A stretch of DNA of 64,000 nt from Escherichia phage vB_EcoP-CHD5UKE1. The translations under genes and the position numbers were made by a program. Numbering within the stretch: position 1 is the stretch's first letter; each line of letters opens with the position of its first letter. The stretch is taken from sequence record NC_070989.1, one strand, 5' to 3'. This document shows, one piece after another, positions 25,774 through 61,705 of the stretch. A model generated the notes under the pieces. The model was given only the letters and a program-made list of their open reading frames with translations. It had not been told where the DNA came from and ran no database searches.

Positions 25774-25840
25774 GACCTAAGTCCTGCCTTCTATAATGTA
25801 TATAGGGGGTAGGACATTTTTATTTATAAAAGGAGACGTT

Positions 25841-28800
25841 ATGGCTAACATTAAACCGTGGGAAGAAGCTTCCAAAGCTCCTGCGTATCTGAATGCCTCT
25901 CCGGAGCAACAAGCTCAAATGAGAGAACAATATAAGGCAGCAGGTGGCTCTATTCCTGAGGAACAACCAGTAGCACAACCACAACAAGAAGAACGTGGTG
26001 CTATAGGTGAGTTTGCTCAAGGTGTGTCAAATGCTCTTCAATCTGGTGGTGCAAATATTGCAGCTAGTGCTGCTAAAGGTATTGGTGGTTTAGTTGAGAT
26101 TGGTGAGAATCTAGCTGGAGCACAAACTAGTTATGGTAAGCGTATCCAAGAGAACTCTCAGAACCTTCTGAAAGAACGTATGGATAAGATTGAGGATGGG
26201 ATTGGTAAAACTGTCGGTCAGTATGCTGGCGTTGCTGGTGATATCGGTTTGACAGTTGCTAACCCATTGGCTGCTGCTGCTATCATCGCAGGTCGTGAGA
26301 CAGGTCGTGCATATGCAGACCAAACCCCTGAAGAGGGAGAAGATAAGTCTATTCTAGATGCAGCCTTAGTTGGTGGTGCTAACTATGCGGCTCAGAGAAT
26401 CCTTCCGGGTGCTGTCGGTACAGCTGAGTCCACGCTTGGACGTATTGGTCAGAACGTTGCTAGTAACGCAGTGGCTGGTGCTAAAGGTGGTGCTCTTGTG
26501 GGTGCTGCTGAAGCTCAGAATAAGCACGGAGATGACACAACCTTTGCTAATATATTAGAAGGTGCTATCGAAGAAGGTGCTATGGGTGCTGCATTCGGTG
26601 GTGCAGTTGGTGGGGTTCATGGTTTGATTAGCCGTCCGGATTCTGCTGTCTTCAAGAATACTCCAGAGTATGCGAAGACTGATATTGCTGCTGATGATGA
26701 ACTAATTCGTAGTGCTAAGAATATTGATGAACTGAAAGAAGCTTACTCTAAAGCTGAAACTGCTAACGCTGCTTCTGCTCTTAACCTTCTGGATGAGAAT
26801 GGATTCCGTATTACAGATGCTGTTGCTGTAGATTCTCCTGCTGCTCAGCGTATTCTTAATACTGACCAAGCTCGTGCTGAGAAAGCTGCTTCTGTTCAGA
26901 AAGAACATTCCAACATTCCGGGCCTTAATCCTTTATCTTCTCCTGCTAAGACTCGTGGTAAATCATTTGCTGATAATGAGCACAACCAGAAGCAGGCTGT
27001 TGCTATGAAGGATGCAATGGCTGACTACACCAAAGACAACACGAAAGCTCTTACAGATGTTCTAGATAACCTAGACCGTGAATTAACTTCTCTCCGAGCT
27101 TCTGGTGATTTTACTGGTAGTCCGATTGATATTAAGAATCGTACACAAGCTGACCGTGATTTCATTGATGCTTACAAGACTTTCTACAATGAAGCAAATC
27201 GATTCAAAGCTCGTGATGGTGAAGACTTTAATAACTTTGTAGAGAAAGCTGCTGAACTACAGAAGATGGCTGATAATGTTTCTCCAGAGATGAAGAAAGC
27301 TATTGGTGGGTTGAAGAAACTGAAAGGTATGCCTGAAGGTTTTAATCCTATTCAAGATGCTTACACTCTGAACAATACAGCTAAATTCATGAGCAACCAA
27401 GATCGTGGTTGGACTTCCTTGACTGATGATGGATTCCGTGAGGCTTCTTCTCCTAGTCTGGTGATGAACACTCTCGGTGCTGCTAAATATGCTCTGAATC
27501 GCTTCTCTTCTCAGCGTGCCCGTTCTCAACGTGTTAAGCAACAAGAGTCTAATAGTGAAGCTATCCGCTCTCTGGCTCGTGGTGATTTGGAAGTTGCTCG
27601 TGCTAAATCTACTGCTGATGAAGCTCGTGCTAAGATGGAAGAAGAACCAGTTGTTGATGACATTAAATTTAAGACGCAAAATGACGTGGAAACCGAACCG
27701 GTTCGGGAGCCTTCTTCTAGTACTGTGACGGAAGAAAATCTTCCTTCTTCTACTCCTCAAGAAACCCCTCTCACAGCTCGTGATTTAGTTGCGCAAAGAC
27801 GCGCTATCCGTCAGGCTGAACAGCGTCGCGCTGAAGAAGAGGCAGCAGCAGCTCAAGAAGCTCCGGTCGAACAAGCTCCACAGGCTGAACCTCTCCCTGC
27901 TCGTAACCCTTTAGAGGAACGTCGTGCAATGGAACAGCAACGTGCTCAAGAAGAGGCCGCACAGGCTCCAGAACCAACCGTAGAGGAACCAACAGTCAAA
28001 GCTGAGCCATTACCTGCTCGTGCTCCTAAAGCTCCTAAGGAAGCTGTACAGGACGTTAAACCGGCAAGTGGTGTAGAACGTTTAGCTGCTATGTCTAGTG
28101 CTGCTCGTCAGGCTACTAAAGATCGTGCAGAACGCTTTGCTCGTTCTCTGTACTCTAAGGCTGCTAAAGCTAAAGCTACTGCTGAAAACTTCTTGGCTTA
28201 TAAAGGCGATCCTAAGGAACTGATGCGTCGTATTCGTCAGGAAGATAATGCTATCAACACTGAACGTCATGAAGAAATGGCTCGTAACCAGCTGGCCTCT
28301 CAGCAAGGTATTGCTACTGCTAAGAACAACACTGTACGAACTAATTTTGCTGAATGGGTTAAAGAACGTGGTCTGCCAGAAGACATTGCTACTAAGGCAT
28401 TACGTGCTGAAGAGAAAGGTTTAGGTGGGAACGTAACTAACTTGGATAGTCTGAAACGTCGTGCTGAAAGGTTGTATCAGAAGCAGCGTGAGGATGAGTT
28501 TGATAGACTGTACCAACAAGCTCTAGAAGAGAACAAAGCTTTCGATAAGAAAGATGCTCCTAAACTGGTTGATCAGAAGAAAGAGCTTCAGTCTGAGATT
28601 GATGCTTTGATTGATTCAGAACCTTTACGTCCTGCTCAGAAAGATGCTATGCGTAAGCTGATGAATGACTTTGTAGATGGGAAGTTTAAATCTTCAGAGA
28701 AGGCTGGTAGGGAAGAGGCTTTGGAAGTTGGTCAGATGAAGGATATTTGGGATGGGTTTATTAACACCTACAACAGAGAAGTGAATGCCTTCAACAAAGC

Positions 28801-30262
28801 TAACAAGAACTCTCAGTACGAAGCTGCTGCTAAGCACTTACAGGCTCGTGAAGAACGTCTTGCTACCCTCAGGAAAAAGGCTCAGGCTCGTTCAGATGCT
28901 AAGGCTGCTGTTGAGAATGAACGTAAAACTTTAGAGGCTATTGCAGCTCAGAAGAGTGAGATTGAGAAGATGATGGAAGGTTTACCTAAACCTGTTCGTG
29001 AGGCTCAGGAATCTCGTACATTGAAACAGTTGGCTGCTCACCATGACAAGAACTCTCCAGTTCCTCCAGAGAAGTTCCGTAGTTACATTGAACGTATCCA
29101 CAACGCCGAGTCAGATTATCTTGATCGTCAGCGTCGTTTAACTGATGCAGAGGAAGATGCTCGTCAGGCCAAGTGGAACAAGATGTACGAGCAAGCGGAA
29201 GAGATGAACCGTAAGTTTGATGTGGACAAGAGAGTTAAGCGCAGTGAAGAGCTTAAAGCGGCCCAAGAGCGTGAGAATGATCTTATGGCAGTACAACGTC
29301 AACGTGATGACATTCATCGCCGCCTGATGCGTACTATGGAAGATAAGGGCATATCTAGAGAGGATGCTGAAGCGTTTGCTGGTTCCTATATGGACAACCG
29401 TTATGCACTTCTTGAGAAACCTATGACTCCTACTGAACATCAGAATGCTCGTTCTCGTATCGAAGCTGATGTTGAGAAGTTTGCTAAGAAGTACGAATCA
29501 ATGACTCCTATCGAGAAAGAGATTGTTAAGGTTACTGGAGATACTGAAGGTAAGCTTGATAACTTGGATGCGGATACTAGGAAGGCTATTGAGGAGGCTC
29601 AGAAGGTTGACTCTGATATTAAGAAACTGCAAGAGGAAGAATTGGAGATGGAGAAGATTCGTTCTGCTCTGCCTGATGATGAAAAATCTCAAGCAAATTC
29701 TGATATCTTGGAAAGCATTAAACAACAGGAAGAGGTCTTTGCTGATAAAGTAGAGAAAGCTTTCTTGAGTGGGAAGAGCTTGGATGAGTTGGCTAGTGTG
29801 GCTGAAGTTTTAGACAGGGTTCATGGTGCAGATAAGGCTGGTAACAACCGTCGCTTTGTACGTGCATTGCAGACTGCTGCTGAAAACAAGAAGAAGTATG
29901 GTGATAATCCAGTAGCTTGGTTTAGTGCTGATGATTACTCTGCCATTGCTAAACTTGGTGCTTCTTCCGCAGGTGGTAACAAATCCAGAGCACTGGAGAA
30001 GATCTTTGGTTCTACAGCTGAACAGGCTAAGAGTAAGTTGCTTGGTAGGGATGATGTAGCGAAGATGAGACGTGTGATTGAAGAGAACCCTGATATTAAG
30101 ATTCCTTCTTACAAGACAACGAATCGTACTGAGTACTTGCAGTTCTTGGAGAAGTTTAATGACGAAGGGAAGCCGAAGATTAAACGTGGCTCATTGTCAG
30201 AGAAGCTTGAACGCAGTAAGCGTCAATCGAGACTCCGTGTAAGAGTTCGACCTAAGGAGTGA
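25841..30262 (+). CDS. very large Ala/Glu/Lys-rich coiled-coil virion protein (1473 aa from ATG 25841), candidate internal core/ejection or tape-measure-like protein
   Basis: AAGGAG RBS before ATG 25841; extensive helical charged repeats; last gene of the late arm. Confidence 0.5.
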   Translation: MANIKPWEEASKAPAYLNASPEQQAQMREQYKAAGGSIPEEQPVAQPQQEERGAIGEFAQGVSNALQSGGANIAASAAKGIGGLVEIGENLAGAQTSYGKRIQENSQNLLKERMDKIEDGIGKTVGQYAGVAGDIGLTVANPLAAAAIIAGRETGRAYADQTPEEGEDKSILDAALVGGANYAAQRILPGAVGTAESTLGRIGQNVASNAVAGAKGGALVGAAEAQNKHGDDTTFANILEGAIEEGAMGAAFGGAVGGVHGLISRPDSAVFKNTPEYAKTDIAADDELIRSAKNIDELKEAYSKAETANAASALNLLDENGFRITDAVAVDSPAAQRILNTDQARAEKAASVQKEHSNIPGLNPLSSPAKTRGKSFADNEHNQKQAVAMKDAMADYTKDNTKALTDVLDNLDRELTSLRASGDFTGSPIDIKNRTQADRDFIDAYKTFYNEANRFKARDGEDFNNFVEKAAELQKMADNVSPEMKKAIGGLKKLKGMPEGFNPIQDAYTLNNTAKFMSNQDRGWTSLTDDGFREASSPSLVMNTLGAAKYALNRFSSQRARSQRVKQQESNSEAIRSLARGDLEVARAKSTADEARAKMEEEPVVDDIKFKTQNDVETEPVREPSSSTVTEENLPSSTPQETPLTARDLVAQRRAIRQAEQRRAEEEAAAAQEAPVEQAPQAEPLPARNPLEERRAMEQQRAQEEAAQAPEPTVEEPTVKAEPLPARAPKAPKEAVQDVKPASGVERLAAMSSAARQATKDRAERFARSLYSKAAKAKATAENFLAYKGDPKELMRRIRQEDNAINTERHEEMARNQLASQQGIATAKNNTVRTNFAEWVKERGLPEDIATKALRAEEKGLGGNVTNLDSLKRRAERLYQKQREDEFDRLYQQALEENKAFDKKDAPKLVDQKKELQSEIDALIDSEPLRPAQKDAMRKLMNDFVDGKFKSSEKAGREEALEVGQMKDIWDGFINTYNREVNAFNKANKNSQYEAAAKHLQAREERLATLRKKAQARSDAKAAVENERKTLEAIAAQKSEIEKMMEGLPKPVREAQESRTLKQLAAHHDKNSPVPPEKFRSYIERIHNAESDYLDRQRRLTDAEEDARQAKWNKMYEQAEEMNRKFDVDKRVKRSEELKAAQERENDLMAVQRQRDDIHRRLMRTMEDKGISREDAEAFAGSYMDNRYALLEKPMTPTEHQNARSRIEADVEKFAKKYESMTPIEKEIVKVTGDTEGKLDNLDADTRKAIEEAQKVDSDIKKLQEEELEMEKIRSALPDDEKSQANSDILESIKQQEEVFADKVEKAFLSGKSLDELASVAEVLDRVHGADKAGNNRRFVRALQTAAENKKKYGDNPVAWFSADDYSAIAKLGASSAGGNKSRALEKIFGSTAEQAKSKLLGRDDVAKMRRVIEENPDIKIPSYKTTNRTEYLQFLEKFNDEGKPKIKRGSLSEKLERSKRQSRLRVRVRPKE

Positions 30263-30621: not shown

Positions 30622-30879
30622 CTAGATTAAATCGTAATACTGAATAATGTCAGAGAGTTTGAACTCTCGAATCTCATCTTTCTCTACATCTATCGCTGTC
30701 ATAATCCAACAAGGTTTGCCACCGTTATGAAAACGGGAGCTAGCAACGGAGGTTCGGAGTGGAATAACGGACCGGTCAGCAACCTCGCCTCTCCAATTGC
30801 GATAGCGAAAGCGAAGCATTTGTTGCGTAGATTTTTGATCATCACTCATTTCCTTTTTTGAATTGTTTTCTTGCATCAT
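30622..30879 (-). CDS. hypothetical protein (about 86 aa from internal ATG; track ORF 30622-30990)
   Basis: Overlaps 3' end of the HNH gene in another frame. Confidence 0.35.
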   Translation of the reverse strand: MMQENNSKKEMSDDQKSTQQMLRFRYRNWRGEVADRSVIPLRTSVASSRFHNGGKPCWIMTAIDVEKDEIREFKLSDIIQYYDLI

Positions 30880-31243
30880 TCTCTTCTTTTGTTTTAATCT
30901 TATGACAAGGGTCTTTACACAGAACCTGAAAACCTTCTTTCTCACACAGAGCACGAGAGATGATCTCATCCCAAGTGGCTTCATGGTCAAGAGGAACTAT
31001 AGGCTCTATGTGGTCAATAGCCATATCCTTTACAGGGTGGTCAGAACCACACATGGCACACTTAAAGTGCATTGCCAGTCTGCCTGTCTTTGGATTAATC
31101 TTCTGCTCTGTCTTGGCGTCTGCTAGTGCATCGAACATGGGCTTCCACTTTCTAGTCAGAGAACGAATCCCTGACTTGATGAAAGAGTTATAACGAGCTT
31201 CAGTCCACATTCCACTACAGCGAGTCTTCTCAGACTTCGCCAT
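30842..31243 (-). CDS. HNH endonuclease (133 aa)
   Basis: CxxC...H-x-DHIEP motif arrangement typical of the HNH nuclease core. Confidence 0.7.
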   Translation of the reverse strand: MAKSEKTRCSGMWTEARYNSFIKSGIRSLTRKWKPMFDALADAKTEQKINPKTGRLAMHFKCAMCGSDHPVKDMAIDHIEPIVPLDHEATWDEIISRALCEKEGFQVLCKDPCHKIKTKEENDARKQFKKGNE

Positions 31244-31409
31244 AATCAGCTTCTTCCCAAACTCGTTTGTTTACACGATGGCTTACCTTACCCTCTCGAG
31301 GAATACGACCAGTCCGCTGATCAAACAGTTGATGTTTAATCTTTTGGTCTTTACGAGATTCACGGTTGGAGGAGTTTTCATCATATGAACGATAATCAAA
31401 TTTACCCAT
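31230..31409 (-). CDS. small basic hypothetical protein (59 aa)
   Basis: ORF with AAGGA RBS, overlaps HNH start; not in track (below 60 aa). Confidence 0.3.
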   Translation of the reverse strand: MGKFDYRSYDENSSNRESRKDQKIKHQLFDQRTGRIPREGKVSHRVNKRVWEEADYGEV

Positions 31410-31422
31410 TATAATATCCTTA

Positions 31423-32265
31423 TTACCAAGATTTATCTAACCATGTCCAGTCGAACAGGTCTTCCGGAGTCTGACCAACAAAGAGAAGCCGAGCATTCTC
31501 AAGCATCTTCTCTTCATCTTCAGTATCGAACTTCTTATAATATTCCATTCGTACTATATGATACATGGTCCACTTATCTGTAACACCAGCTAGTAATTTA
31601 GCTGCTGCCTTCTTCCCTACTCCTTGACGTCGAAGCTGAAGCTTACCCCCCCACATGACTTCTTCACGTTCCCCACATCCGGGGATATTATCCGTACCAT
31701 CTCCAATCAACATTTGATAGAAGAAGTTTTGCCATGAAACTAAATCAGATACATAGTGAGGAGGAACCTCTTTTTGTCTTTCTCCACAAGCCCAACGGTA
31801 ATGCCATCCGGGAGTTATCAACAAATCTTTGTCTCTAGTACAGATGATAGTGTTCTTATCTCTACGTTGCCTTTCAGCTAGTGCATCATCAGCTTCTCTA
31901 CCAAAGACCTCAATGTATTCGTACTTGGCTTTAATGTAATCACCAACGTTTTGCCAGTGAAAAGGTCTTTCTCCGGGAGGTCTGTTTGCCTTGTAGTCTT
32001 GTTGCTTAGCAACATCGAAACGGAAGTTACCACCTTCGCTGAAGTAGAATACAACCTTACTACAACCCGAGCGAGCTATGATTGTATCGATCTTGTACTG
32101 AAGTCGTTCAATCATGAAATTGTAATCAACTGGAACACGTCCTGTGTCAAGGAAGGGATGCTCCTGAGTAAGAGCACCTACTTCATACCGAAGAACGTCA
32201 GCGTCCACTATAGCAACTTCAGGGAGCTTAACCTCTTCCATAAATATCATCCTGAGCTTGAGCAA
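31423..32265 (-). CDS. 5'-3' exonuclease / flap endonuclease, T7 gp6-like (280 aa)
   Basis: Motifs DYKANR, EADDA, CTRDKDL, IGDGTDNIPG parallel T7 exonuclease conserved blocks. Confidence 0.82.
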   Translation of the reverse strand: MLKLRMIFMEEVKLPEVAIVDADVLRYEVGALTQEHPFLDTGRVPVDYNFMIERLQYKIDTIIARSGCSKVVFYFSEGGNFRFDVAKQQDYKANRPPGERPFHWQNVGDYIKAKYEYIEVFGREADDALAERQRRDKNTIICTRDKDLLITPGWHYRWACGERQKEVPPHYVSDLVSWQNFFYQMLIGDGTDNIPGCGEREEVMWGGKLQLRRQGVGKKAAAKLLAGVTDKWTMYHIVRMEYYKKFDTEDEEKMLENARLLFVGQTPEDLFDWTWLDKSW

Positions 32266-33117
32266 TAATCCAATCTAGATCTGATACTGCTGATTCAATA
32301 GTTGAGTCATTAAATAGTAGATATGTTTTTCTCTGCTCTCCTTCAATATATGAGCGAGAGTCTCCATCAAAAGAGCAACCATCTCTAAGAACTTGGACAA
32401 CTTGGACATGGAAATTCTTTTCTAGTTCTCGTACCTCTGCATCAAAACCTCCGTCAGTAAACATGACAATATCATCCTGACCTAACCCTTCTTGTTTGAT
32501 GCTTTTTACAGCAAGATTCCCCATATGGTTGTTGCCAAACATAGGTTTTAAGAAGTCTTCACTTGTAGAAATCATCAAATCTCTTACAGACTTCCCTCCC
32601 CATTCTGGTCTAGGTTTTTCTTTCCATTCACGGTCTTCATAGCGTGCTAGAAAGTTTTCTAGAGGTATGCCTAGTGCAGCAGCAGCTACCTTGTACATTG
32701 GCTCCTTGAAGGATTTGGTTGAATAATTGTGATGGTATGAATGGGCATTGACCCAAGCATTGGCTATCGTATCTTTACCACAACCCGGAGGCCCATTAAG
32801 AATTACTACTAAAGGCTTATAATGGGAATCTACCACCATATTGGTCAGTGCTGGATTGCCTTGAGATTCCATTTCTAATTGCTCCGTGTGGTCATGTGAG
32901 TAGTCTACTGGAGAAGTTTTGTTACCAGTAACTTTAGGTAAAATCGCTCTAGTTGTTTCTACGTATTTACCGCCATCAATATTGATTTGAAACTCTACAA
33001 GCTCATTCTGTAACTCATATCCTGATAAGTTGGATAGCTCCTCCAACTCATCTCTGATGAAATTTAAATGTTTGATTTTAATTGCAAGAGCTTTCTTTAA
33101 AGCTTTTACCTCTTCAC

Positions 33118-33127
<10 letters not shown>
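32228..33127 (-). CDS. P-loop kinase, dNMP-kinase-like (299 aa) with N-terminal coiled-coil
   Basis: Walker A GPPGCGKDT resembling the T4 gp1 dNMP kinase GKDT signature; substrate not determinable. Confidence 0.55.
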
Positions 33128-34613
<1,486 letters not shown>

Positions 34614-34614
<1 letters not shown>

Positions 34615-34874
34615 TATTTTATCCCACGCTCTTTCAGAGCTTCTAACAATCCATTGTGATTGGCAGCACATTCTGTGTACTGGTCCTGATACCACTCCAA
34701 CGTAGTGGCTAGTGCCTTTCCTTGAGCACTCTCTAAAAGAGGTAGGTCAACCCTACATTCAGCTTTTAGGTTTGTTGGTAAGGGCATTGATTGCCTGCTG
34801 TTGTCGCTCGTTGAACATGCGGACATAGTCATCGCTAGCGCAGACATTATAAAAAACTGGTTTAGTTTTCTCAT
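34614..34874 (-). CDS. outer-membrane lipoprotein, o-spanin candidate (about 86 aa)
   Basis: Signal peptide with lipobox-like MSAC, Pro-rich, two further Cys; start embedded in i-spanin gene in another frame. Confidence 0.5.
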
Positions 34875-35109
34875 AATGCATCTCTTTATAAATGGTTTCC
34901 GTGTTCTTCTTCCAGTTAGATAAACCGGTAAGAACTCTCTGAGCAACCTCATCAGCTGCCTTGCTTCTTTCAATCTCTAACTCTTGTTGATGTTTCTCTT
35001 TATCTAGATTACTACTGTCTGTTTGGTACTCGTTAAACTTCATACCACCAAAGAATACAAGAGCTGAGAAAACGATAAACCCTAAGTTATCACTTAATGT
35101 GTTTTGCAT
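34759..35109 (-). CDS. i-spanin candidate (116 aa from ATG 35109): N-terminal TM helix plus periplasmic coiled-coil
   Basis: LGFIVFSALVFFGG TM segment then charged helical region; GGAG RBS before ATG 35109. Confidence 0.5.
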   Translation of the reverse strand: MQNTLSDNLGFIVFSALVFFGGMKFNEYQTDSSNLDKEKHQQELEIERSKAADEVAQRVLTGLSNWKKNTETIYKEMHYEKTKPVFYNVCASDDYVRMFNERQQQAINALTNKPKS

Positions 35110-35167: not shown

Positions 35168-35581
35168 TTATATGAATTTCTGCATACCTTTGATACGAGG
35201 GTTATCATCACCAACTCTCGATTTACAGTAAGCGATAAAAGATTCAGTATTGAGGTTATCCTTTTGAGAACCCCACTGGAGATTGTCTGCTCTATTGTTG
35301 CTCGGATTATCATCCAGATGCATAACAACAGCGTTAGGAAAAGGTTTCTCACCATGAAAAGTCTCACACACTAAGATATGAATCCTTTTCTTAAACTTTC
35401 TTTTCCTGTTTACAAACACCATTCTTCCATCTTTCTCTCTATATCCGCTATATGGTTTTCCTACGAAAAGCCTAACTCCACCATTATTCGTTATGGCTGT
35501 GAAAGGCTTAATCTTAACTCTACCAAAAGATGATACGGAAAGGAAATCATAATAGGGGTGATCTTTCCAGACTTCTTCCAC
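35168..35581 (-). CDS. HNH homing-type endonuclease (137 aa)
   Basis: HLDDNPSNNRADNLQWGSQKDN motif (HNH_3-type). Confidence 0.7.
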   Translation of the reverse strand: MEEVWKDHPYYDFLSVSSFGRVKIKPFTAITNNGGVRLFVGKPYSGYREKDGRMVFVNRKRKFKKRIHILVCETFHGEKPFPNAVVMHLDDNPSNNRADNLQWGSQKDNLNTESFIAYCKSRVGDDNPRIKGMQKFI

Positions 35582-44895: not shown

Positions 44896-45552
44896 TTAAC
44901 TCTCCAAAGTTTTCTTCAGGGCTGCCCATGAGATTGGGTAAAGTTTAGCCATCTCTTCATCCAGAGATTGAGCAAACACTCGAACTTCGTATTGAGCGTG
45001 AGAGGAGAGTCGCTGACGACACAACTCAAACCAGCCATATAAAGAACCAGTCCACACCCACTCAGTGATCATTCCCTGAGGAAGAACAAATCGGGCTTGC
45101 TCTGGTGCAACGAATTCGATTAACTTGTCATATGCTGCTAGAGAAGCTTCATATGCATCGTTAATCAACATTAATGCTTCAGCTCGTTCTCCATCGATGA
45201 GTTGAACCCCTGAACCTGCATGGAGGTCCGAAGGTCTCGCAAAAATCTCTTTAGGGATGAAGACTTCAACTGCTCCATCTTTATACCGCCGGGACATTTC
45301 GTTCCACGAGAATCCAACCTGATGCTTGCCCAGCTGTCTCGCAATTGCGATAGGTGCTTTGCATCGGAAACTGACTTGCGGGTGTCGGAATGGGGTAACA
45401 TGCTTCTCTCTTGCGAGAAAGTTGATGAGACGTTCATCACGTTCATTTAAATCACCTTCACGGGTTACGCCAAAGGAAACTCGAGCTGCGTTTACTACGC
45501 TACGATCACTTCCCATAGCTTCGATTAATGTTGCTTGTAGTTGTTCATTCAT
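44896..45552 (-). CDS. thyX: flavin-dependent thymidylate synthase ThyX-like (218 aa)
   Basis: ThyX signature region GKHQVGFSWNEMSRRY (canonical RHR-x7-S with K-H-Q in place of R-H-R) and C-terminal ThyX-like block. Confidence 0.7.
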   Translation of the reverse strand: MNEQLQATLIEAMGSDRSVVNAARVSFGVTREGDLNERDERLINFLAREKHVTPFRHPQVSFRCKAPIAIARQLGKHQVGFSWNEMSRRYKDGAVEVFIPKEIFARPSDLHAGSGVQLIDGERAEALMLINDAYEASLAAYDKLIEFVAPEQARFVLPQGMITEWVWTGSLYGWFELCRQRLSSHAQYEVRVFAQSLDEEMAKLYPISWAALKKTLES

Positions 45553-47665: not shown

Positions 47666-48199
47666 TTACACACCTTTAGATGCAACTACACCTTCAGAGT
47701 TATTATAACGACCCTTCACTGCATAGGAGTGCTCCCCTGCATGAGAGTGCTCAAACATGACCATCTGACCAACACGCATACCAGCACGAACTCGTAAGCT
47801 GTGGTGCTTGGTTACGTTATGGAATTCAAATGTCAGCTTACTGCTATTAAATCCTGCATCTGCCCAACCTGCGTGAAGGTGGTTCAAACCACAACGAGCC
47901 ATAGATGAACGCAGAACAAACAGACTTGAGATGTTGTCTGGAAGATTAAACTCCTCCATAGAGTGAGCCAAGAAGAACTGACCCGGAGTGATAACCAAAC
48001 CCTCTTCAGGAATCTTTACTTCCTTCCACTGAAGATTCTCTTTCGCATCAATATCAACGATGCCATCAGCCTGTTCTTCAACAAGGATAGTATCACCAAT
48101 ACGGATATCCACACTAGCAGCGTTAACATACTTATGCTCCGCATCCAGATAGCCATTGTCAATTACATCATGCAGTTCAACACTTCCTAGTAAACTCAT
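47666..48199 (-). CDS. dCTP deaminase/dUTPase-family protein (177 aa)
   Basis: Size and ASVDIRIGD block resembling the Dcd/dUTPase beta-barrel family. Confidence 0.55.
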   Translation of the reverse strand: MSLLGSVELHDVIDNGYLDAEHKYVNAASVDIRIGDTILVEEQADGIVDIDAKENLQWKEVKIPEEGLVITPGQFFLAHSMEEFNLPDNISSLFVLRSSMARCGLNHLHAGWADAGFNSSKLTFEFHNVTKHHSLRVRAGMRVGQMVMFEHSHAGEHSYAVKGRYNNSEGVVASKGV

Positions 48200-48208
48200 T
48201 CTTATTCC

Positions 48209-49570
48209 TTAGTTATTTGTTTCCATGTCAAAAGAGATTCCACGACCCGCTTCATCGGCAAACCGAACTGTTCGGGTTTGAGGTTCTAATACTTCAGGGT
48301 TGTTAGCAACAAACCGATCAGCGAGACTACGACTGACAGTCTCAGCTAATTCACCATGAGAAGGGATATCAAGACTACCTACCACATCTTGGGCCACACC
48401 TTCATCAGTCCACACAGCCCTAACAGGTGCGTTGATATCACCAACAGCAAAACCCTGACCAGAGAACTGACGTGCGCTAACAGTTAAACCGTTTGGTCGA
48501 CCACGAGAAGGTCTAGCCATCCATCGCTCCATAGAATCACTTGTAATACCAAGAGCTTCTTCAAAAGATGTTCTACGAGTAGGGCTTACTCTTCGTGACT
48601 CTTGTGCTCGACGCATTGCAGGGGCTACAAACACCCCTTCAATTGCATTGTGTCGGTTAGGTTCCTCTTCTCGACCAAGCAGATCACCACCCGTGTTAGT
48701 CGTTAAATTTGTCAACCCCTCAGACCAATACGCATGAATCTGACCAGAACCGTGAAGACTAGACATAATCTGAATCTCTTCATAAGGGATTCCAAAGAAT
48801 CGACTCATGTCTCGGTTGACACAATATAGAGCACTTGTTGTATCTTCAATAAGAGAAACCTGACCTAATCCATTGACTAGATGACTAACTGGCTGAGGTG
48901 TGGGAAGATATCGAGTTTGGGCCATGTATTGATGTGCAACTGCTGGAGAGGAAAATCTCAACACTTGTGAGTTAGGCCACTTCTTGTGAACATACCTGAT
49001 TTCACGACTAGAGACAACCACTGGACAAGGGGAAGTCATAGCCAAATATCCGTGAGAAGTCATGAATAAGTTGTCAAGAGTCATCGCACCACGGCACATC
49101 ATGGGAAAATTATCCAATACCTCTTCAATAGAAGTAGGATAATTAAACATGAATTGGATACGAACCCCATTCCACTGAAACTCAATAATATCAGTGAATG
49201 TTAATTGAGAACCCCCAGCATAGGATTCGTTTGTAGCTTCAGCAAGAAGTGATGCATATTCAATATCTTGTGACTCTAGCCATTCCTTCACATTACTTTC
49301 AATCTCCCGTCCAAGCTCTTGCCAACGATCAGTTGGGATGAAAGTGTTTTGAGTTCTTGGTGTTTGTCCTCTGACAATAAAGATATCAATGTCATGTGGA
49401 GCTATGTTATTAAGGACAGCATCACGAACAGCCCCACCAGTAATGATGGGACAGATACCATCTGGAATCAAGTTGTTATTAATCAACTGTTCAATGAAGT
49501 GACGACCAACAGTGATATCAGGTTGTTGAGCAACCTTATCTTCAATTTGGTTAATCGGGATAACAATCAT
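48209..49570 (-). CDS. nucleotidyltransferase with CCA-adding/poly(A)-polymerase-type head domain (about 453 aa from ATG 49570)
   Basis: GGAVRD followed by DIDIF (class II tRNA nucleotidyltransferase/PAP head signature GGxVRD...DxD); start 1 nt after the stop of the exonuclease gene. Confidence 0.55.
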   Translation of the reverse strand: MIVIPINQIEDKVAQQPDITVGRHFIEQLINNNLIPDGICPIITGGAVRDAVLNNIAPHDIDIFIVRGQTPRTQNTFIPTDRWQELGREIESNVKEWLESQDIEYASLLAEATNESYAGGSQLTFTDIIEFQWNGVRIQFMFNYPTSIEEVLDNFPMMCRGAMTLDNLFMTSHGYLAMTSPCPVVVSSREIRYVHKKWPNSQVLRFSSPAVAHQYMAQTRYLPTPQPVSHLVNGLGQVSLIEDTTSALYCVNRDMSRFFGIPYEEIQIMSSLHGSGQIHAYWSEGLTNLTTNTGGDLLGREEEPNRHNAIEGVFVAPAMRRAQESRRVSPTRRTSFEEALGITSDSMERWMARPSRGRPNGLTVSARQFSGQGFAVGDINAPVRAVWTDEGVAQDVVGSLDIPSHGELAETVSRSLADRFVANNPEVLEPQTRTVRFADEAGRGISFDMETNN

Positions 49571-49571
49571 T

Positions 49572-50129
49572 TTACATTTTCCAATATAATGAAGGTGGGT
49601 CGTAAGGGTCAAATCCCGTGAGTTCACACAAGAAAAGATAAACCTTAACAGTTAAGTTAACGTCCTGTTCACAATAAGTAAACATATCTTCAGTGAAAGC
49701 ATCCCATGCTTCCTCTTGCTCACCATAATCGCCCTTAAGCTCTCCTAAGAACTCACCCCACTGCTTCAAACCATGACCTCTTGGGCCACGTCTAGGGTCG
49801 CCTTTCGGATACTCAGGACTGTCACCAATACGGTCAGGTTTAAGATATCGACTAAGACATAAAGTGTCAAAGACGTTAAAATTATATTTAATCAAAGAGG
49901 GATACATCTTTTTCAGAGCAGGTAAGTCGAAGTCAATAATATTATGACCCACTAGTACATCTGCTTCTGTAAGTTTACGAATCCCATCTTCAATTTGGTG
50001 AGGCCGATAGCCCCACCTTTCACCAGTTTCAACATCAAAGATATAAATACACCATACTTTAGTTATGTCATCGTACAGTGCATTACTCTCGATATCGAAT
50101 GCAAACACTTTCTTCTTTTTCTTTACCAC
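49572..50129 (-). CDS. DnaQ-like DEDDh 3'-5' exonuclease (185 aa), separately encoded proofreading-type domain
   Basis: Exo I FDIES, Exo [11 protein letters not shown], Exo III YCEQD motifs. Confidence 0.75.
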
Positions 50130-59534: not shown

Positions 59535-60498
59535 TGTAATACTCCACTAGTTCAGAAAAGAGAGATGAGATTGTGTTACCAACTTCTTCAAGAGTAAGAC
59601 CGGAATCTGCTCCAGTTCTTTGAATCAGTCGGGCTGTAAAGTTTTGTACTGTAATGTTTCCCAACTTGTCGTCTATTGCTTCACGTTTGTGACCATAACA
59701 GTTGGACCAGAGTCTTAACCACTCTGACATTGTTTCATACTCGTCCGGGTCTTGATCTTTAGCACGAGCAAATCTTCGTAAGGCATCTTGGTTATGGTTA
59801 CGAACATAACCATTCTCGTTGTCGCCAACACCGAAGGGGTTTTGAACCCATACTTGCTTCGTGTATTCATCAGAGTCTACAACCAAAGGAAGGAATGCTG
59901 CTGCTGACATATTGTTGTTAATAACAATAGAGGTGCTCTCACTACTCCCATTGGCTCTTCCTCGTTGAGACCATCCACCGAAGAAGTCACGACCCAACCC
60001 AGCTAACACTAGAGCGATGCCGATGCGTTTACGCTTCAGCCACTCTTCCCTGTCTTCAATTCCTTCTGCTAGGAAATCCATTCCACGATATTGCCCTTCC
60101 AGAATACTACGAAAGAGCATAAGTCCTGTGAAGATCTGATCTGCTGGATGCTCACGAAGGTTGACAGCAACACTATTCGCTGAAGTGATCGTAAATACGT
60201 CACGATAGCAAGACATGGAGTTCATAATGTCTGCTGTTTCAACCAAGTTCTTTTCAATATCAGATGCAACATGACCGTGAAAAGAGTGAGTCCAGTAATT
60301 CAACATCTCCAGTTGCAAGTTGATATCACGGTTGAAGCGACGATAACGCCCTTCTTCCGAGATAACTTCACCATTAATGTCATTTACACACTGGCCTTGC
60401 ATGTAGTTGTGGATACCGAAGCACCCACGACCTAAGAACTTCTGTTCCCCTAAATCCTGTTGAAGATTAAGAGGTACGATCGTTGTGGAGATTGACAT
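59527..60498 (-). CDS. hypothetical protein (323 aa) within the ligase cassette
   Basis: ORF; no recognisable motif. Confidence 0.45.
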   Translation of the reverse strand: MSISTTIVPLNLQQDLGEQKFLGRGCFGIHNYMQGQCVNDINGEVISEEGRYRRFNRDINLQLEMLNYWTHSFHGHVASDIEKNLVETADIMNSMSCYRDVFTITSANSVAVNLREHPADQIFTGLMLFRSILEGQYRGMDFLAEGIEDREEWLKRKRIGIALVLAGLGRDFFGGWSQRGRANGSSESTSIVINNNMSAAAFLPLVVDSDEYTKQVWVQNPFGVGDNENGYVRNHNQDALRRFARAKDQDPDEYETMSEWLRLWSNCYGHKREAIDDKLGNITVQNFTARLIQRTGADSGLTLEEVGNTISSLFSELVEYYND

Positions 60499-60508
60499 AA
60501 CTAACCTT

Positions 60509-61705
60509 TTATTTTCCTAAAAATAATCCGCTCATAATACCATCCCACTCAGAGGACGGAATCACTGAATACTCCGAACTTTGGTCCAGAGTTCCGCTAC
60601 TGAATCGCTGAACAATATTATAAATATTGAACATATCTTTAGTCTCAGCGCGATAAGCGTAGACTAATCTGTCAGCTGTTCTTTCATCTTTAGATACCCG
60701 ACGAGCAAAGGTAACCAGAAGATTGTCACCTTTGAGTATTTCTGACTCATCTTTTACTAGATCAGGGTGCATAACCGGCAAGAACATTGAGTTGTTCACT
60801 CGTAACTCTGCTGTTTCATCATTCTCATAATGAATCCATTTAAAATCTTCATCACGAAAGTGACCGCATCCATCTCTGTATGACTGTTGACGCCAAGGCA
60901 CTTGAAATGCTTCAGCGTATTTATCAGCCATGCCAACCGTAAATAGTGACGCTGGGAAAATACAAGCATCCCAATCGTTACCAACCAGAGTTGCTTTCGT
61001 TTCGCCCAAGAGGTTAGTGTAAGTGCTAACCATTCGTGAGTAAACATAAGCCTGAAGGATTGTCCAGCCTTCAACCAACCATTTATGGAGGAAGGTTTCA
61101 ACTTGACTCTCTTCATCTTCACAATAGAAGGTTCGGTCTAACATCAAATAGAACAGACAACGATCAGCAGGGATATTCTCAGTTGCTACCCCCATAAAAC
61201 CTTTATCGTGCCAGCGTAAACAGGAGGGACGATCTTTGTCCACAAATGCTTCCATAGCTTCCAGTACAGCACGAGGTGTGGTTCGGTGTTCAGGGTTTTT
61301 GTCGTTCCAACGTTCGATGTTATTTTTAGGAGGTGTGTCTTCATCTTCATATGAACACCAACTCAAAGCTTCAGCTACGTGCTTTTCATCACGCCAACGT
61401 CTAAAGCCTAACATCTTCATATGAGTTCCAGAGTTCCAGATATGCTTAATACTGCTCATATCCATCTCTCGACTTAATAAGAACTCTTCCCCATCAGCAC
61501 TACGAACGTTAGCATCTTCATGCCACACTCGAACGTGCATGTTCCATCCATGAGTTGCCTCATACATGTTAGGGTCGAAGTAGTCATCATCTTCGTCGTC
61601 TTCATCAACGCCACCATTATAGTTGCGAAGCTGAAGGAACCCATAACAAGGAGGGTTGACCGTTAAAACATTACCTTCAGTATCTTCTAATGTTACTGGA
61701 AACAT
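60509..61705 (-). CDS. hypothetical acidic protein (398 aa) within the ligase cassette
   Basis: ORF; no recognisable motif. Confidence 0.45.
   Translation of the reverse strand: MFPVTLEDTEGNVLTVNPPCYGFLQLRNYNGGVDEDDEDDDYFDPNMYEATHGWNMHVRVWHEDANVRSADGEEFLLSREMDMSSIKHIWNSGTHMKMLGFRRWRDEKHVAEALSWCSYEDEDTPPKNNIERWNDKNPEHRTTPRAVLEAMEAFVDKDRPSCLRWHDKGFMGVATENIPADRCLFYLMLDRTFYCEDEESQVETFLHKWLVEGWTILQAYVYSRMVSTYTNLLGETKATLVGNDWDACIFPASLFTVGMADKYAEAFQVPWRQQSYRDGCGHFRDEDFKWIHYENDETAELRVNNSMFLPVMHPDLVKDESEILKGDNLLVTFARRVSKDERTADRLVYAYRAETKDMFNIYNIVQRFSSGTLDQSSEYSVIPSSEWDGIMSGLFLGK

Follow-up and report, generated by a model that had tools for sequence, protein, structure and literature searches.

A Kuravirus deoxynucleoside monophosphate kinase gene that probably arose by domain replacement behind the N-terminus of a displaced DUF3310 gene

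Some phages of the genus Kuravirus (phiEco32-like podophages of the Gordonclarkvirinae) encode a small P-loop kinase that carries an unusual N-terminal extension, which we analyse here in a 64,000-nucleotide stretch of Escherichia phage vB_EcoP-CHD5UKE1 (NC_070989.1; hereafter the window). There is nothing unusual in the protein as a kinase: it belongs to a known phage enzyme family and has been annotated as a putative deoxynucleoside monophosphate (dNMP) kinase since phiEco32 was sequenced, so that what is new is an explanation of its odd architecture. We propose that it is probably a chimeric dNMP kinase, in which a P-loop domain of the T5 Dnk/T4 gp1 type sits on the N-terminus of a T7 gp1.7-like (DUF3310) gene that was displaced in the same genomic slot.

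A search for homologues returned proteins of three kinds: 297-residue proteins resembling that of the window, proteins of 198-202 residues that comprise the kinase alone (64-70% identical to the window's protein; phages 4E8, ECBP2 and XT32), and 175-residue proteins that match its residues 1-103 only, at 78-94% identity. The remainder of the 175-residue proteins is Pfam family PF11753 (DUF3310), which is found in T7 gp1.7 at E 4.5e-23 and in one 175-residue Kuravirus protein (P0019) at E 1.8e-8, above the gathering score. A passage of PMC7693777, citing Tran et al. 2012, describes T7 gp1.7 as an unusual nucleotide kinase that lacks Walker motifs and phosphorylates dTMP and dGMP; the alternative Kuravirus occupant of the slot thus resembles T7 gp1.7 in carrying the same catalytic family. 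The window's protein keeps the N-terminal module of the Kuravirus DUF3310 protein together with the first seven DUF3310 residues, including 'SHY', and is without the DUF3310 core. Pfam finds no PF11753 match in it, just the start MVVDSHY remaining, and by tblastn neither the window nor the related phage vB_EcoP_SU10 contains a DUF3310 core. A relationship between the N-terminus of the window's protein and that of T7 gp1.7 itself was also tested, and no similarity was seen; the N-terminus of gp1.7 is Cys-rich. The parts of the gene and its two neighbours are as follows.

32228..33121, minus strand: complete kinase gene, 297 codons plus TAA, its ATG overlapping the upstream stop (ATGA)
32819..32839, minus strand: vestige of the DUF3310 start, the seven residues MVVDSHY (residues 95-101), with SHY at positions 5-7 of the DUF3310 hidden Markov model (HMM)
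32231..32818, minus strand: P-loop dNMP-kinase domain, residues 102-297
32243..32812, no strand given: swapped catalytic cassette, without DNA homology to DUF3310-allele genomes in pairwise blastn
33118..33510, minus strand: upstream gene for a 130-residue SLOG/YAcAr-like protein, annotated 'GTP-binding', its stop overlapping the kinase start
31423..32241, minus strand: downstream 5'-3' exonuclease gene, its start overlapping the kinase 3' end by 14 nucleotides

The junction between the two parts can be read directly. The window's protein runs ...GNPALTNMVVDSHY|KPLVVILNGPPGCGKDT, the DUF3310 proteins run ...GNPALASMVGGSHY|NPDSKKIQPIEFY... at the same point, and the kinase-only alleles begin MSKPLVVILNGPP...; the window's protein therefore proceeds through seven DUF3310 residues and then switches to a P-loop kinase. 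SHY occupies HMM positions 5-7 in both T7 gp1.7 and P0019, and the presence of this vestige in the fused protein gives the event a direction, with the DUF3310 gene as donor of the N-terminus. The motif is invariant as MVGGSHY in five DUF3310 alleles and varies in the fused alleles (MVVDSHY, MVGDSHY and MVECSQY), where it coincides with a local diversity peak, and comparison of these alleles indicates that the vestige has drifted, that is, decayed, in the fused form. The breakpoints are equally exact in the DNA. Against phage 172-1 and a Logan contig (L004), blastn identity is 91-95% from upstream of the gene through position 32813 (codon 103); there is no homology to the DUF3310-allele genomes from 32812 to 32243, and the match picks up again at 32242, a single base ahead of the exonuclease start codon. 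Because homology breaks at codon 103 and returns at the exonuclease start, the exchanged piece is exactly the catalytic domain. We suggest that a recombination or in-frame replacement just after 'SHY' would have put the P-loop kinase in place of the small DUF3310 core while keeping the upstream module; an in-frame deletion within an ancestor that carried the N-terminal-DUF3310 gene and the kinase gene in tandem, and recombination between co-infecting phages of the two allele types, are equally possible routes.

The two catalytic domains occupy the same place in different phages. The 175-residue gene lies between the same SLOG/YAcAr-like and 5'-3' exonuclease genes in 172-1, Paul, PE006, Bas93 and a Logan contig, and the DUF3310 allele is found as well in sister genera (KBNP1711, EP335) and in the more distant Cronobacter phage GAP52. 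A P-loop domain, with or without the extension, is present in the slot in 63 Gordonclarkvirinae-type records, 37 of them of the window's type (at least 85% identity) and the other 26 at 60-80%, the range of the XT32, 4E8 and ECBP2 kinase-only forms; the DUF3310 core is present at 80% identity or more in 34 records. These two sets do not overlap among the members listed (about 97 records), and no P-loop kinase homologue turned up when the complete 172-1 genome was searched in all six frames (best E 3.7). The alleles are thus mutually exclusive, and the isolates of the BASEL collection divide accordingly into kinase-only (Bas86-89), fused (Bas90) and DUF3310 (Bas91-94) forms. Further variants of the slot are seen: the XT32 allele lacks codons ~9-101 and reads MSNEPKPLVV, IMEP8 joins the same DUF3310 core to an unrelated N-terminus, and one Logan contig (L011) lacks the SLOG gene and codons 1-88. 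The start of this last allele reads MSNPALTNMVGDSHYKPLVV, from which we derive it from a fused allele. In this contig (L011:2360-3639) and in L012, which has the same losses (Logan contigs ERR1303032 and ERR1302956), the kinase gene comes straight after that for the sigma factor, and an extra HNH/AP2 endonuclease gene follows the exonuclease gene.

Variation in the slot extends to the P-loop alleles themselves. The Kuravirus P-loop kinase domains fall into at least three subtypes with 64-70% protein identity, and compared with XT32 the DNA is ~93% identical upstream of the kinase gene and ~88% over the block of the kinase and downstream sequence, making the slot a diversity hotspot even among phages that carry a P-loop allele. 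A sliding diversity plot shows patchy mosaicism over the whole region and no unique sweep.

The catalytic half of the window's protein is a member of the phage dNMP kinase family, as the first-pass annotation had recognised in calling it a dNMP-kinase-like P-loop kinase with the Walker A sequence GPPGCGKDT. PHROG 139 ('deoxynucleoside monophosphate kinase') matches it at E 8.3e-56 (residues 27-293); the characterised T5 Dnk (1.4e-51) and a kinase-only Kuravirus allele (5.4e-40) align to the same stretch of the profile (~80-265). The remote homology comparison proposed in that annotation likewise leads to T5 Dnk, to which a profile of 102 homologues (the alignment that also served as AlphaFold2 input) aligns with 96.5% probability in hhalign. 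BLASTP aligns the two proteins at 36% identity over the P-loop and the following helix. Three catalytic motifs are intact in the domain.

32768..32794, minus strand: Walker A GPPGCGKDT, residues 110-118 of the 297-residue form, in nearly invariant columns of the family alignment
32444..32455, minus strand: DGGF motif, residues 223-226, Walker-B-like and nearly invariant in the family
32354..32365, minus strand: GDSR motif, residues 253-256, with family-conserved D254 and R256

All near-invariant residues of the family are present in the window's protein (N109, P111, G115-K-D-T118, K167, R180, S187-E188, K192, D223-G-G-F226, E229, F251, D254 and R256), and the kinase domain is conserved among seven alleles, with a ratio of nonsynonymous to synonymous substitution rates (dN/dS) of 0.10. 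In an AlphaFold2 model (mean predicted local distance difference test score, pLDDT, 84), residues 103-297 form a very confident alpha/beta domain (pLDDT 90-98), an NMP-kinase fold that in fold comparison is closest to a solved dNMP kinase. Homologues occur in 1433 phage records by tblastn, spread over many phage groups, and most of these match residues 107-262 only.

Comparison with the characterised enzymes places the protein within this family. Like the window's protein, T5 Dnk (T5.043, YP_006871) belongs to PHROG 139, has a GxxGxGKDT P-loop and an alignable helix after it, and is encoded by an early/middle nucleotide-metabolism gene of a virulent coliphage; it differs in its length of 250 residues, in having an insertion and no N-terminal extension, and in reaching Pfam family DNMK (PF21448; 43.4 bits at a cutoff of 27.1), and overall pairwise similarity is low. 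Some other relatives in the family (P0102, P0104) also carry PF21448. T4 gp1 (PDB 1DEK/1DEL) is 18% identical to the window's protein and has no comparable N-terminal module. The part of PMC10653934 that deals with these enzymes states that T5 Dnk phosphorylates all four canonical dNMPs and that T4 gp1 acts on dGMP, dTMP and hydroxymethyl-dCMP (hm-dCMP). T4 gp1 thus serves a modified nucleotide, whereas no modified nucleotide is known here, and we agree with the first-pass annotation that the substrate cannot be read from the sequence.

A further possibility is that the P-loop domain phosphorylates a small molecule other than a nucleotide, in the manner of phosphomevalonate or dephospho-CoA kinases, perhaps an intermediate of the amidoligase cassette described below. 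Weak matches to the Pfam P-mevalo_kinase family (E 0.2 for the window's protein, 1.5e-7 for a relative, P0050) point that way, but animal-type phosphomevalonate kinases (PF04275; PDB 3CH4, 7XND) score below T4 gp1, and the phage offers no mevalonate context. Moreover, the PHROG is common to the window's protein and T5 Dnk, the family is widespread in phages without the cassette, and the replacement of the domain in the slot by a T7-type nucleotide kinase points to a nucleotide substrate, so that we regard a non-nucleotide substrate as extremely improbable.

The N-terminal extension, ~101 residues long, is atypical for the family: only 31 of the 1433 tblastn records cover 80% or more of the protein. 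Its predicted structure has three parts.

33023..33115, minus strand: N-terminal amphipathic helix, residues 3-33, about four heptads (AlphaFold secondary structure)
32921..33019, minus strand: long beta-hairpin, residues 35-67, with strands 35-48 and 53-67 and pLDDT ~73
32840..32920, minus strand: predicted disordered linker, residues 68-94, of low AlphaFold confidence

The helix shows a heptad-like pattern (V5, L8, L12, K15 as an exception, L19, I22, L26, L29), and pLDDT falls below 50 at residues 70-89 and 95-97. The extension had originally been read as a 110-residue coiled coil; an atypical extension is indeed present, but since only residues 3-33 are helical with a heptad-like pattern, about 30 of those residues could form a coiled coil, and the rest is hairpin and disordered linker. 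When 1.84 billion cluster representatives were searched exhaustively with phmmer, the N-terminal module was found in Kuravirus DUF3310 proteins only, together with marginal matches in long repetitive proteins. In the DUF3310 alleles the module is under purifying selection (dN/dS 0.20 at dS 0.45), less constrained than the DUF3310 core (dN/dS 0.07); in the seven sampled fused alleles the N-terminus is nearly invariant (dS 0.014), which makes dN/dS uninformative there.

Might the extension be an artefact of gene calling, with the real protein starting near the kinase domain? The existence of kinase-only alleles, and of the L011 allele that begins at MSNPALTNMVGDSHYKPLVV, would fit such a view. 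Against it, in 31 records the reading frame runs uninterrupted from the ATG at 33121, the same 100 residues are under purifying selection in the DUF3310 alleles, and no in-frame ATG with an obvious ribosome-binding site occurs just before codon 102, M95 being the sole Met nearby. The start itself also has the marks of a genuine one: the ATG overlaps the stop codon of the upstream gene (ATGA; AAATGAGTG), GGAG precedes it, and every annotated relative uses the same start. An artefact is accordingly very unlikely. These same features bear on the gene model, for the open reading frame first listed, 32228..33127 on the minus strand (299 residues, GTG start), is real and needs only its start moved two codons inward, to ATG 33121, which is most likely the true start of a 297-residue product.

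What the extension does in the chimera is a separate question. Kinase-only alleles (XT32, 4E8, ECBP2) and the deletion allele of contig L011 persist, and for this reason the extension appears, from allele comparison, to be dispensable for a functional kinase gene. Its helix and hairpin most likely serve in oligomerisation or docking, or else are a remnant that is tolerated; the module would be native to the DUF3310 kinase as a small oligomerisation or docking unit, and in the chimera may be useful or merely tolerated. A more ambitious reading, which we consider unlikely but worth stating, is that this ~100-residue module of zipper-like helix and beta-hairpin is a lineage-specific adaptor that serves to dock or oligomerise the nucleotide kinase fused to it, of whichever type. 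Such an adaptor might bind the coupled upstream SLOG/YAcAr protein or the phage replication and dNTP-synthesis machinery. If this were so, the Kuravirus kinase would be a modular enzyme whose catalytic head can be exchanged for an unrelated one, and the frequent turnover of alleles might reflect host defences that act on nucleotide pools.

Returning to the chimeric dNMP kinase that we favour, we propose that the slot holds interchangeable, unrelated nucleotide kinases; since these have displaced one another in place without orthology, the job of the slot would be nucleotide phosphorylation. Residues 102-297 would transfer the gamma-phosphate of ATP to dNMPs over a substrate range suggested by homology. 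Two other enzymes of the window may feed the same pathway.

44896..45552, minus strand: ThyX flavin-dependent thymidylate synthase (PF02511, E 1.4e-43), a putative source of dTMP
47666..48199, minus strand: dCTP deaminase (DCD; PF22769, E 3.5e-34), a putative source of deoxyuridine nucleotides for ThyX

In this scheme the dCTP deaminase would provide deoxyuridine nucleotides from which ThyX makes dTMP, and the kinase would convert dTMP to dTDP; dTDP and probably other dNDPs would then pass through host Ndk into phage DNA replication. The dNMPs released from host DNA may be further substrates, and the purpose of the whole would be to support replication of a genome of 40% GC.

Several points weigh against this proposal. 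The pairwise BLAST alignment to T5 Dnk spans just 66 residues (E 1e-6), and the window's protein does not match Pfam DNMK (PF21448) at E <= 1; Pfam and NCBIfam searches give no family-level match, only weak generic P-loop matches. Searches of PDB sequences, whether started from the protein itself or from the family profile, likewise yield matches at the P-loop level only, to AAA+ ATPases and adenylate kinases and to 1DEK at E 7e-4, an uninformative result that we replaced by fold comparison. No genome was found to carry a DUF3310 gene and a kinase gene in tandem, and the P-loop list has no member in common with the DUF3310 list. The activity and substrate range attributed to the Kuravirus slot proteins derive from homology, our literature search having found no published assay of any of them, and to call both alleles nucleotide kinases is an extrapolation by analogy, as DUF3310 kinase activity is known for T7 gp1.7 only. 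Finally, the unusual restriction-modification (RM) resistance of the Gordonclarkvirinae (PMC11990801) makes a non-canonical nucleotide substrate possible.

The last point can be developed into an alternative in which the protein is a true dNMP kinase whose essential role is on a non-canonical dNMP that host kinases refuse, supporting a pre-replicative modification that would explain RM resistance. T4 gp1, with hm-dCMP, is a precedent; the resistance is unexplained, and a dCTP deaminase and a nucleotidyltransferase are conserved beside the replication genes; and the kinase-domain subtypes differ by 30-35% in genomes that are otherwise 90-95% identical. The BASEL paper itself suggests that the dCTP deaminase and nucleotidyltransferase pair could underlie a DNA modification responsible for the resistance (PMC11990801). 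The nucleotidyltransferase so named, a 472-residue protein (window 48209-49627, minus strand; 'nucleotidyltransferase (class II CCA-adding-like)'), adjoins the dCTP deaminase gene and has no Pfam match at E 1e-3. Yet no enzyme that makes a modified dNMP was identified, and ThyX makes ordinary dTMP. T5, whose Dnk belongs to the same PHROG, has DNA with canonical bases, and the slot is equally often filled by a protein of the T7 gp1.7 type, T7 DNA being canonical too. We therefore think a dedicated non-canonical substrate improbable, and retain the chimeric kinase of ordinary dNMPs as the better account.

A bolder link to DNA modification had been drawn in the first-pass annotation, which suggested that the kinase might act with a ligase cassette in base hypermodification. 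The protein would (pyro)phosphorylate a DNA base, for example 5-hydroxymethyldeoxyuridine (5-hmdU), and the leaving group would then be substituted by the products of the amidoligase/COOH-NH2 ligase cassette.

52133-61705, minus strand: amidoligase cassette, with GGACT (PF06094), a GATase-domain protein, Amidoligase_2 (PF12224) and a phiEco32-type COOH-NH2 ligase (PF14395)

This cassette corresponds to SU10 gp078-gp090 (GGACT, ATP-grasp-like, GATase, amidoligase and COOH-NH2 ligase proteins) and lies ~20 kb from the kinase gene. The idea has some appeal: the BASEL study found the Gordonclarkvirinae uniformly and strikingly RM-resistant with no known modification pathway (PMC11990801), the amidoligase, COOH-NH2 ligase, GATase and GGACT genes are unexplained, and the known 5-hmdU DNA kinases are, like the window's protein, small phage-encoded P-loop kinases (PMC8989533). 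These kinases (M6 gp54, ViI gp67/gp243, PhiW-14 gp37 and SP10 gp186) nevertheless belong to a different family, PF18748 (HMUDK_HMUD1; PHROG 800). The window's protein does not match PF18748 at E <= 1, for which M6 gp54 serves as a positive control at 7.7e-18, and the 102-homologue profile aligns to M6 gp54 with 9% probability, at the P-loop only (hhalign); its nearest fold and its PHROG are those of the T4 and T5 mononucleotide kinases. The experimentally characterised M6 gp54 (L008:21686-22249) is itself labelled 'terminase small subunit' in RefSeq, and its best PHROG (phrog_800) bears the same misleading label.

The genomic partners of hypermodification were also not found in the places searched. 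Thymidine hypermodification needs a ThyA-type dUMP hydroxymethylase, a 5-hmdU DNA kinase and aGPT-Pplase transferases (PMC5889632, PMC8989533). No ThyA-type hydroxymethylase was found in the window, ThyX being its only thymidylate synthase homologue, and ten nucleotide-metabolism and cassette proteins, a subset of the window's open reading frames, gave no Pfam match of the aGPT-Pplase type. Whichever allele a phage has in the slot, DNA identity stays at 94-99% over the 2.5-kb core of the cassette, made up of its amidoligase and COOH-NH2 ligase genes, and this holds also where the slot contains no P-loop kinase (172-1, Paul, PE006 and Bas91-94); and the kinase family, in more than 1400 phage records, reaches far beyond phages of this kind. 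Because RM-resistant BASEL isolates carry all three alleles, DNA protection is independent of the P-loop kinase and of its extension. The link to hypermodification is thus unsupported, and an activating kinase of this sort is hardly credible here. The cassette core, for its part, matches most Gordonclarkvirinae records, and parts of it match Salmonella phage 7-11, Proteus phage Privateer, Cronobacter phage GAP52 and Vibrio phages; the cassette also encodes three large proteins (397, 323 and 398 residues) without a Pfam match.

The surroundings of the kinase gene are closely conserved. Positions 31000-35000 of the window are 98.1% identical over their full length to SU10 (window coordinates being approximately SU10 + 163) and 96-97% identical to phiEco32 and ~40 other Kuravirus genomes. 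The counterparts of the kinase gene are SU10 gp030, whose protein is 99.7% identical, and phiEco32 gp34; RefSeq names the product 'deoxynucleoside monophosphate kinase', and the original records have 'ATP-binding protein; putative ATPase or dNMP kinase; contains Walker A motif'. The upstream SLOG/YAcAr-like gene is translationally coupled to the kinase gene; its 130-residue product shows a weak PF10686 match in a relative and is also labelled 'chromosome segregation protein'. Scans of promoters, terminators and composition found nothing special at the kinase gene, and the only strong sigma70-like promoter, a near-consensus site at 34173-34202 on the minus strand (TGGACA-18-TATAAT, 11/12), lies directly upstream of a gene for an extracytoplasmic function (ECF)-like sigma factor. 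Overlapping stop and start codons, together with this strong promoter-like site (34202-34173), suggest that the sigma-factor, SLOG, kinase and exonuclease genes are probably co-transcribed as one unit.

Genes for HNH homing endonucleases bracket this neighbourhood (window 30842-31243 and 35168-35581, both on the minus strand), and their presence varies among otherwise collinear Kuravirus genomes; in Bas93 an HNH gene (L021:1730-2173) is inserted between the slot gene and the exonuclease gene. Such endonucleases may drive the exchanges and mosaicism seen around the kinase gene. Farther away, the plus-strand structural block ends with a gene for a highly charged 1488-residue protein (window 25796-30262, plus strand), rich in Ala, Glu, Lys and Gln, with long, predicted helical, repeat-like stretches and annotated 'hypothetical' or 'erythrocyte binding protein'; gene orientation flips just after it.

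Recognising the chimera also exposes an annotation error. The 175-residue DUF3310 proteins, which have no P-loop, are labelled 'deoxynucleoside monophosphate kinase' in RefSeq and in PHROG 26149, as in 172-1 gp049 (L009:3001-3528), Bas93_0029 (L021:1201-1728), NJ01, Bas91, Bas92, Bas94 and KBNP1711, and the name apparently passed to them through the N-terminal 100 residues that they have in common with phiEco32 gp34. Elsewhere the protein is recorded as a 'nucleotide kinase', after T7 gp1.7.

For the Gordonclarkvirinae, these results remove the kinase gene from the list of candidates for restriction resistance and leave the amidoligase cassette, the dCTP deaminase and the nucleotidyltransferase on it. 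They also lend independent support, from genomic evidence, to the view that uncharacterised DUF3310 proteins are nucleotide kinases. The interest of the locus lies in a natural domain swap between two unrelated nucleotide kinases and not in a new biochemical system: across ~100 closely related coliphage records, a single slot holds either a T5/T4-type P-loop kinase or a T7 gp1.7-type DUF3310 protein, and never both, which makes it a clear-cut natural case of non-orthologous gene displacement in place.

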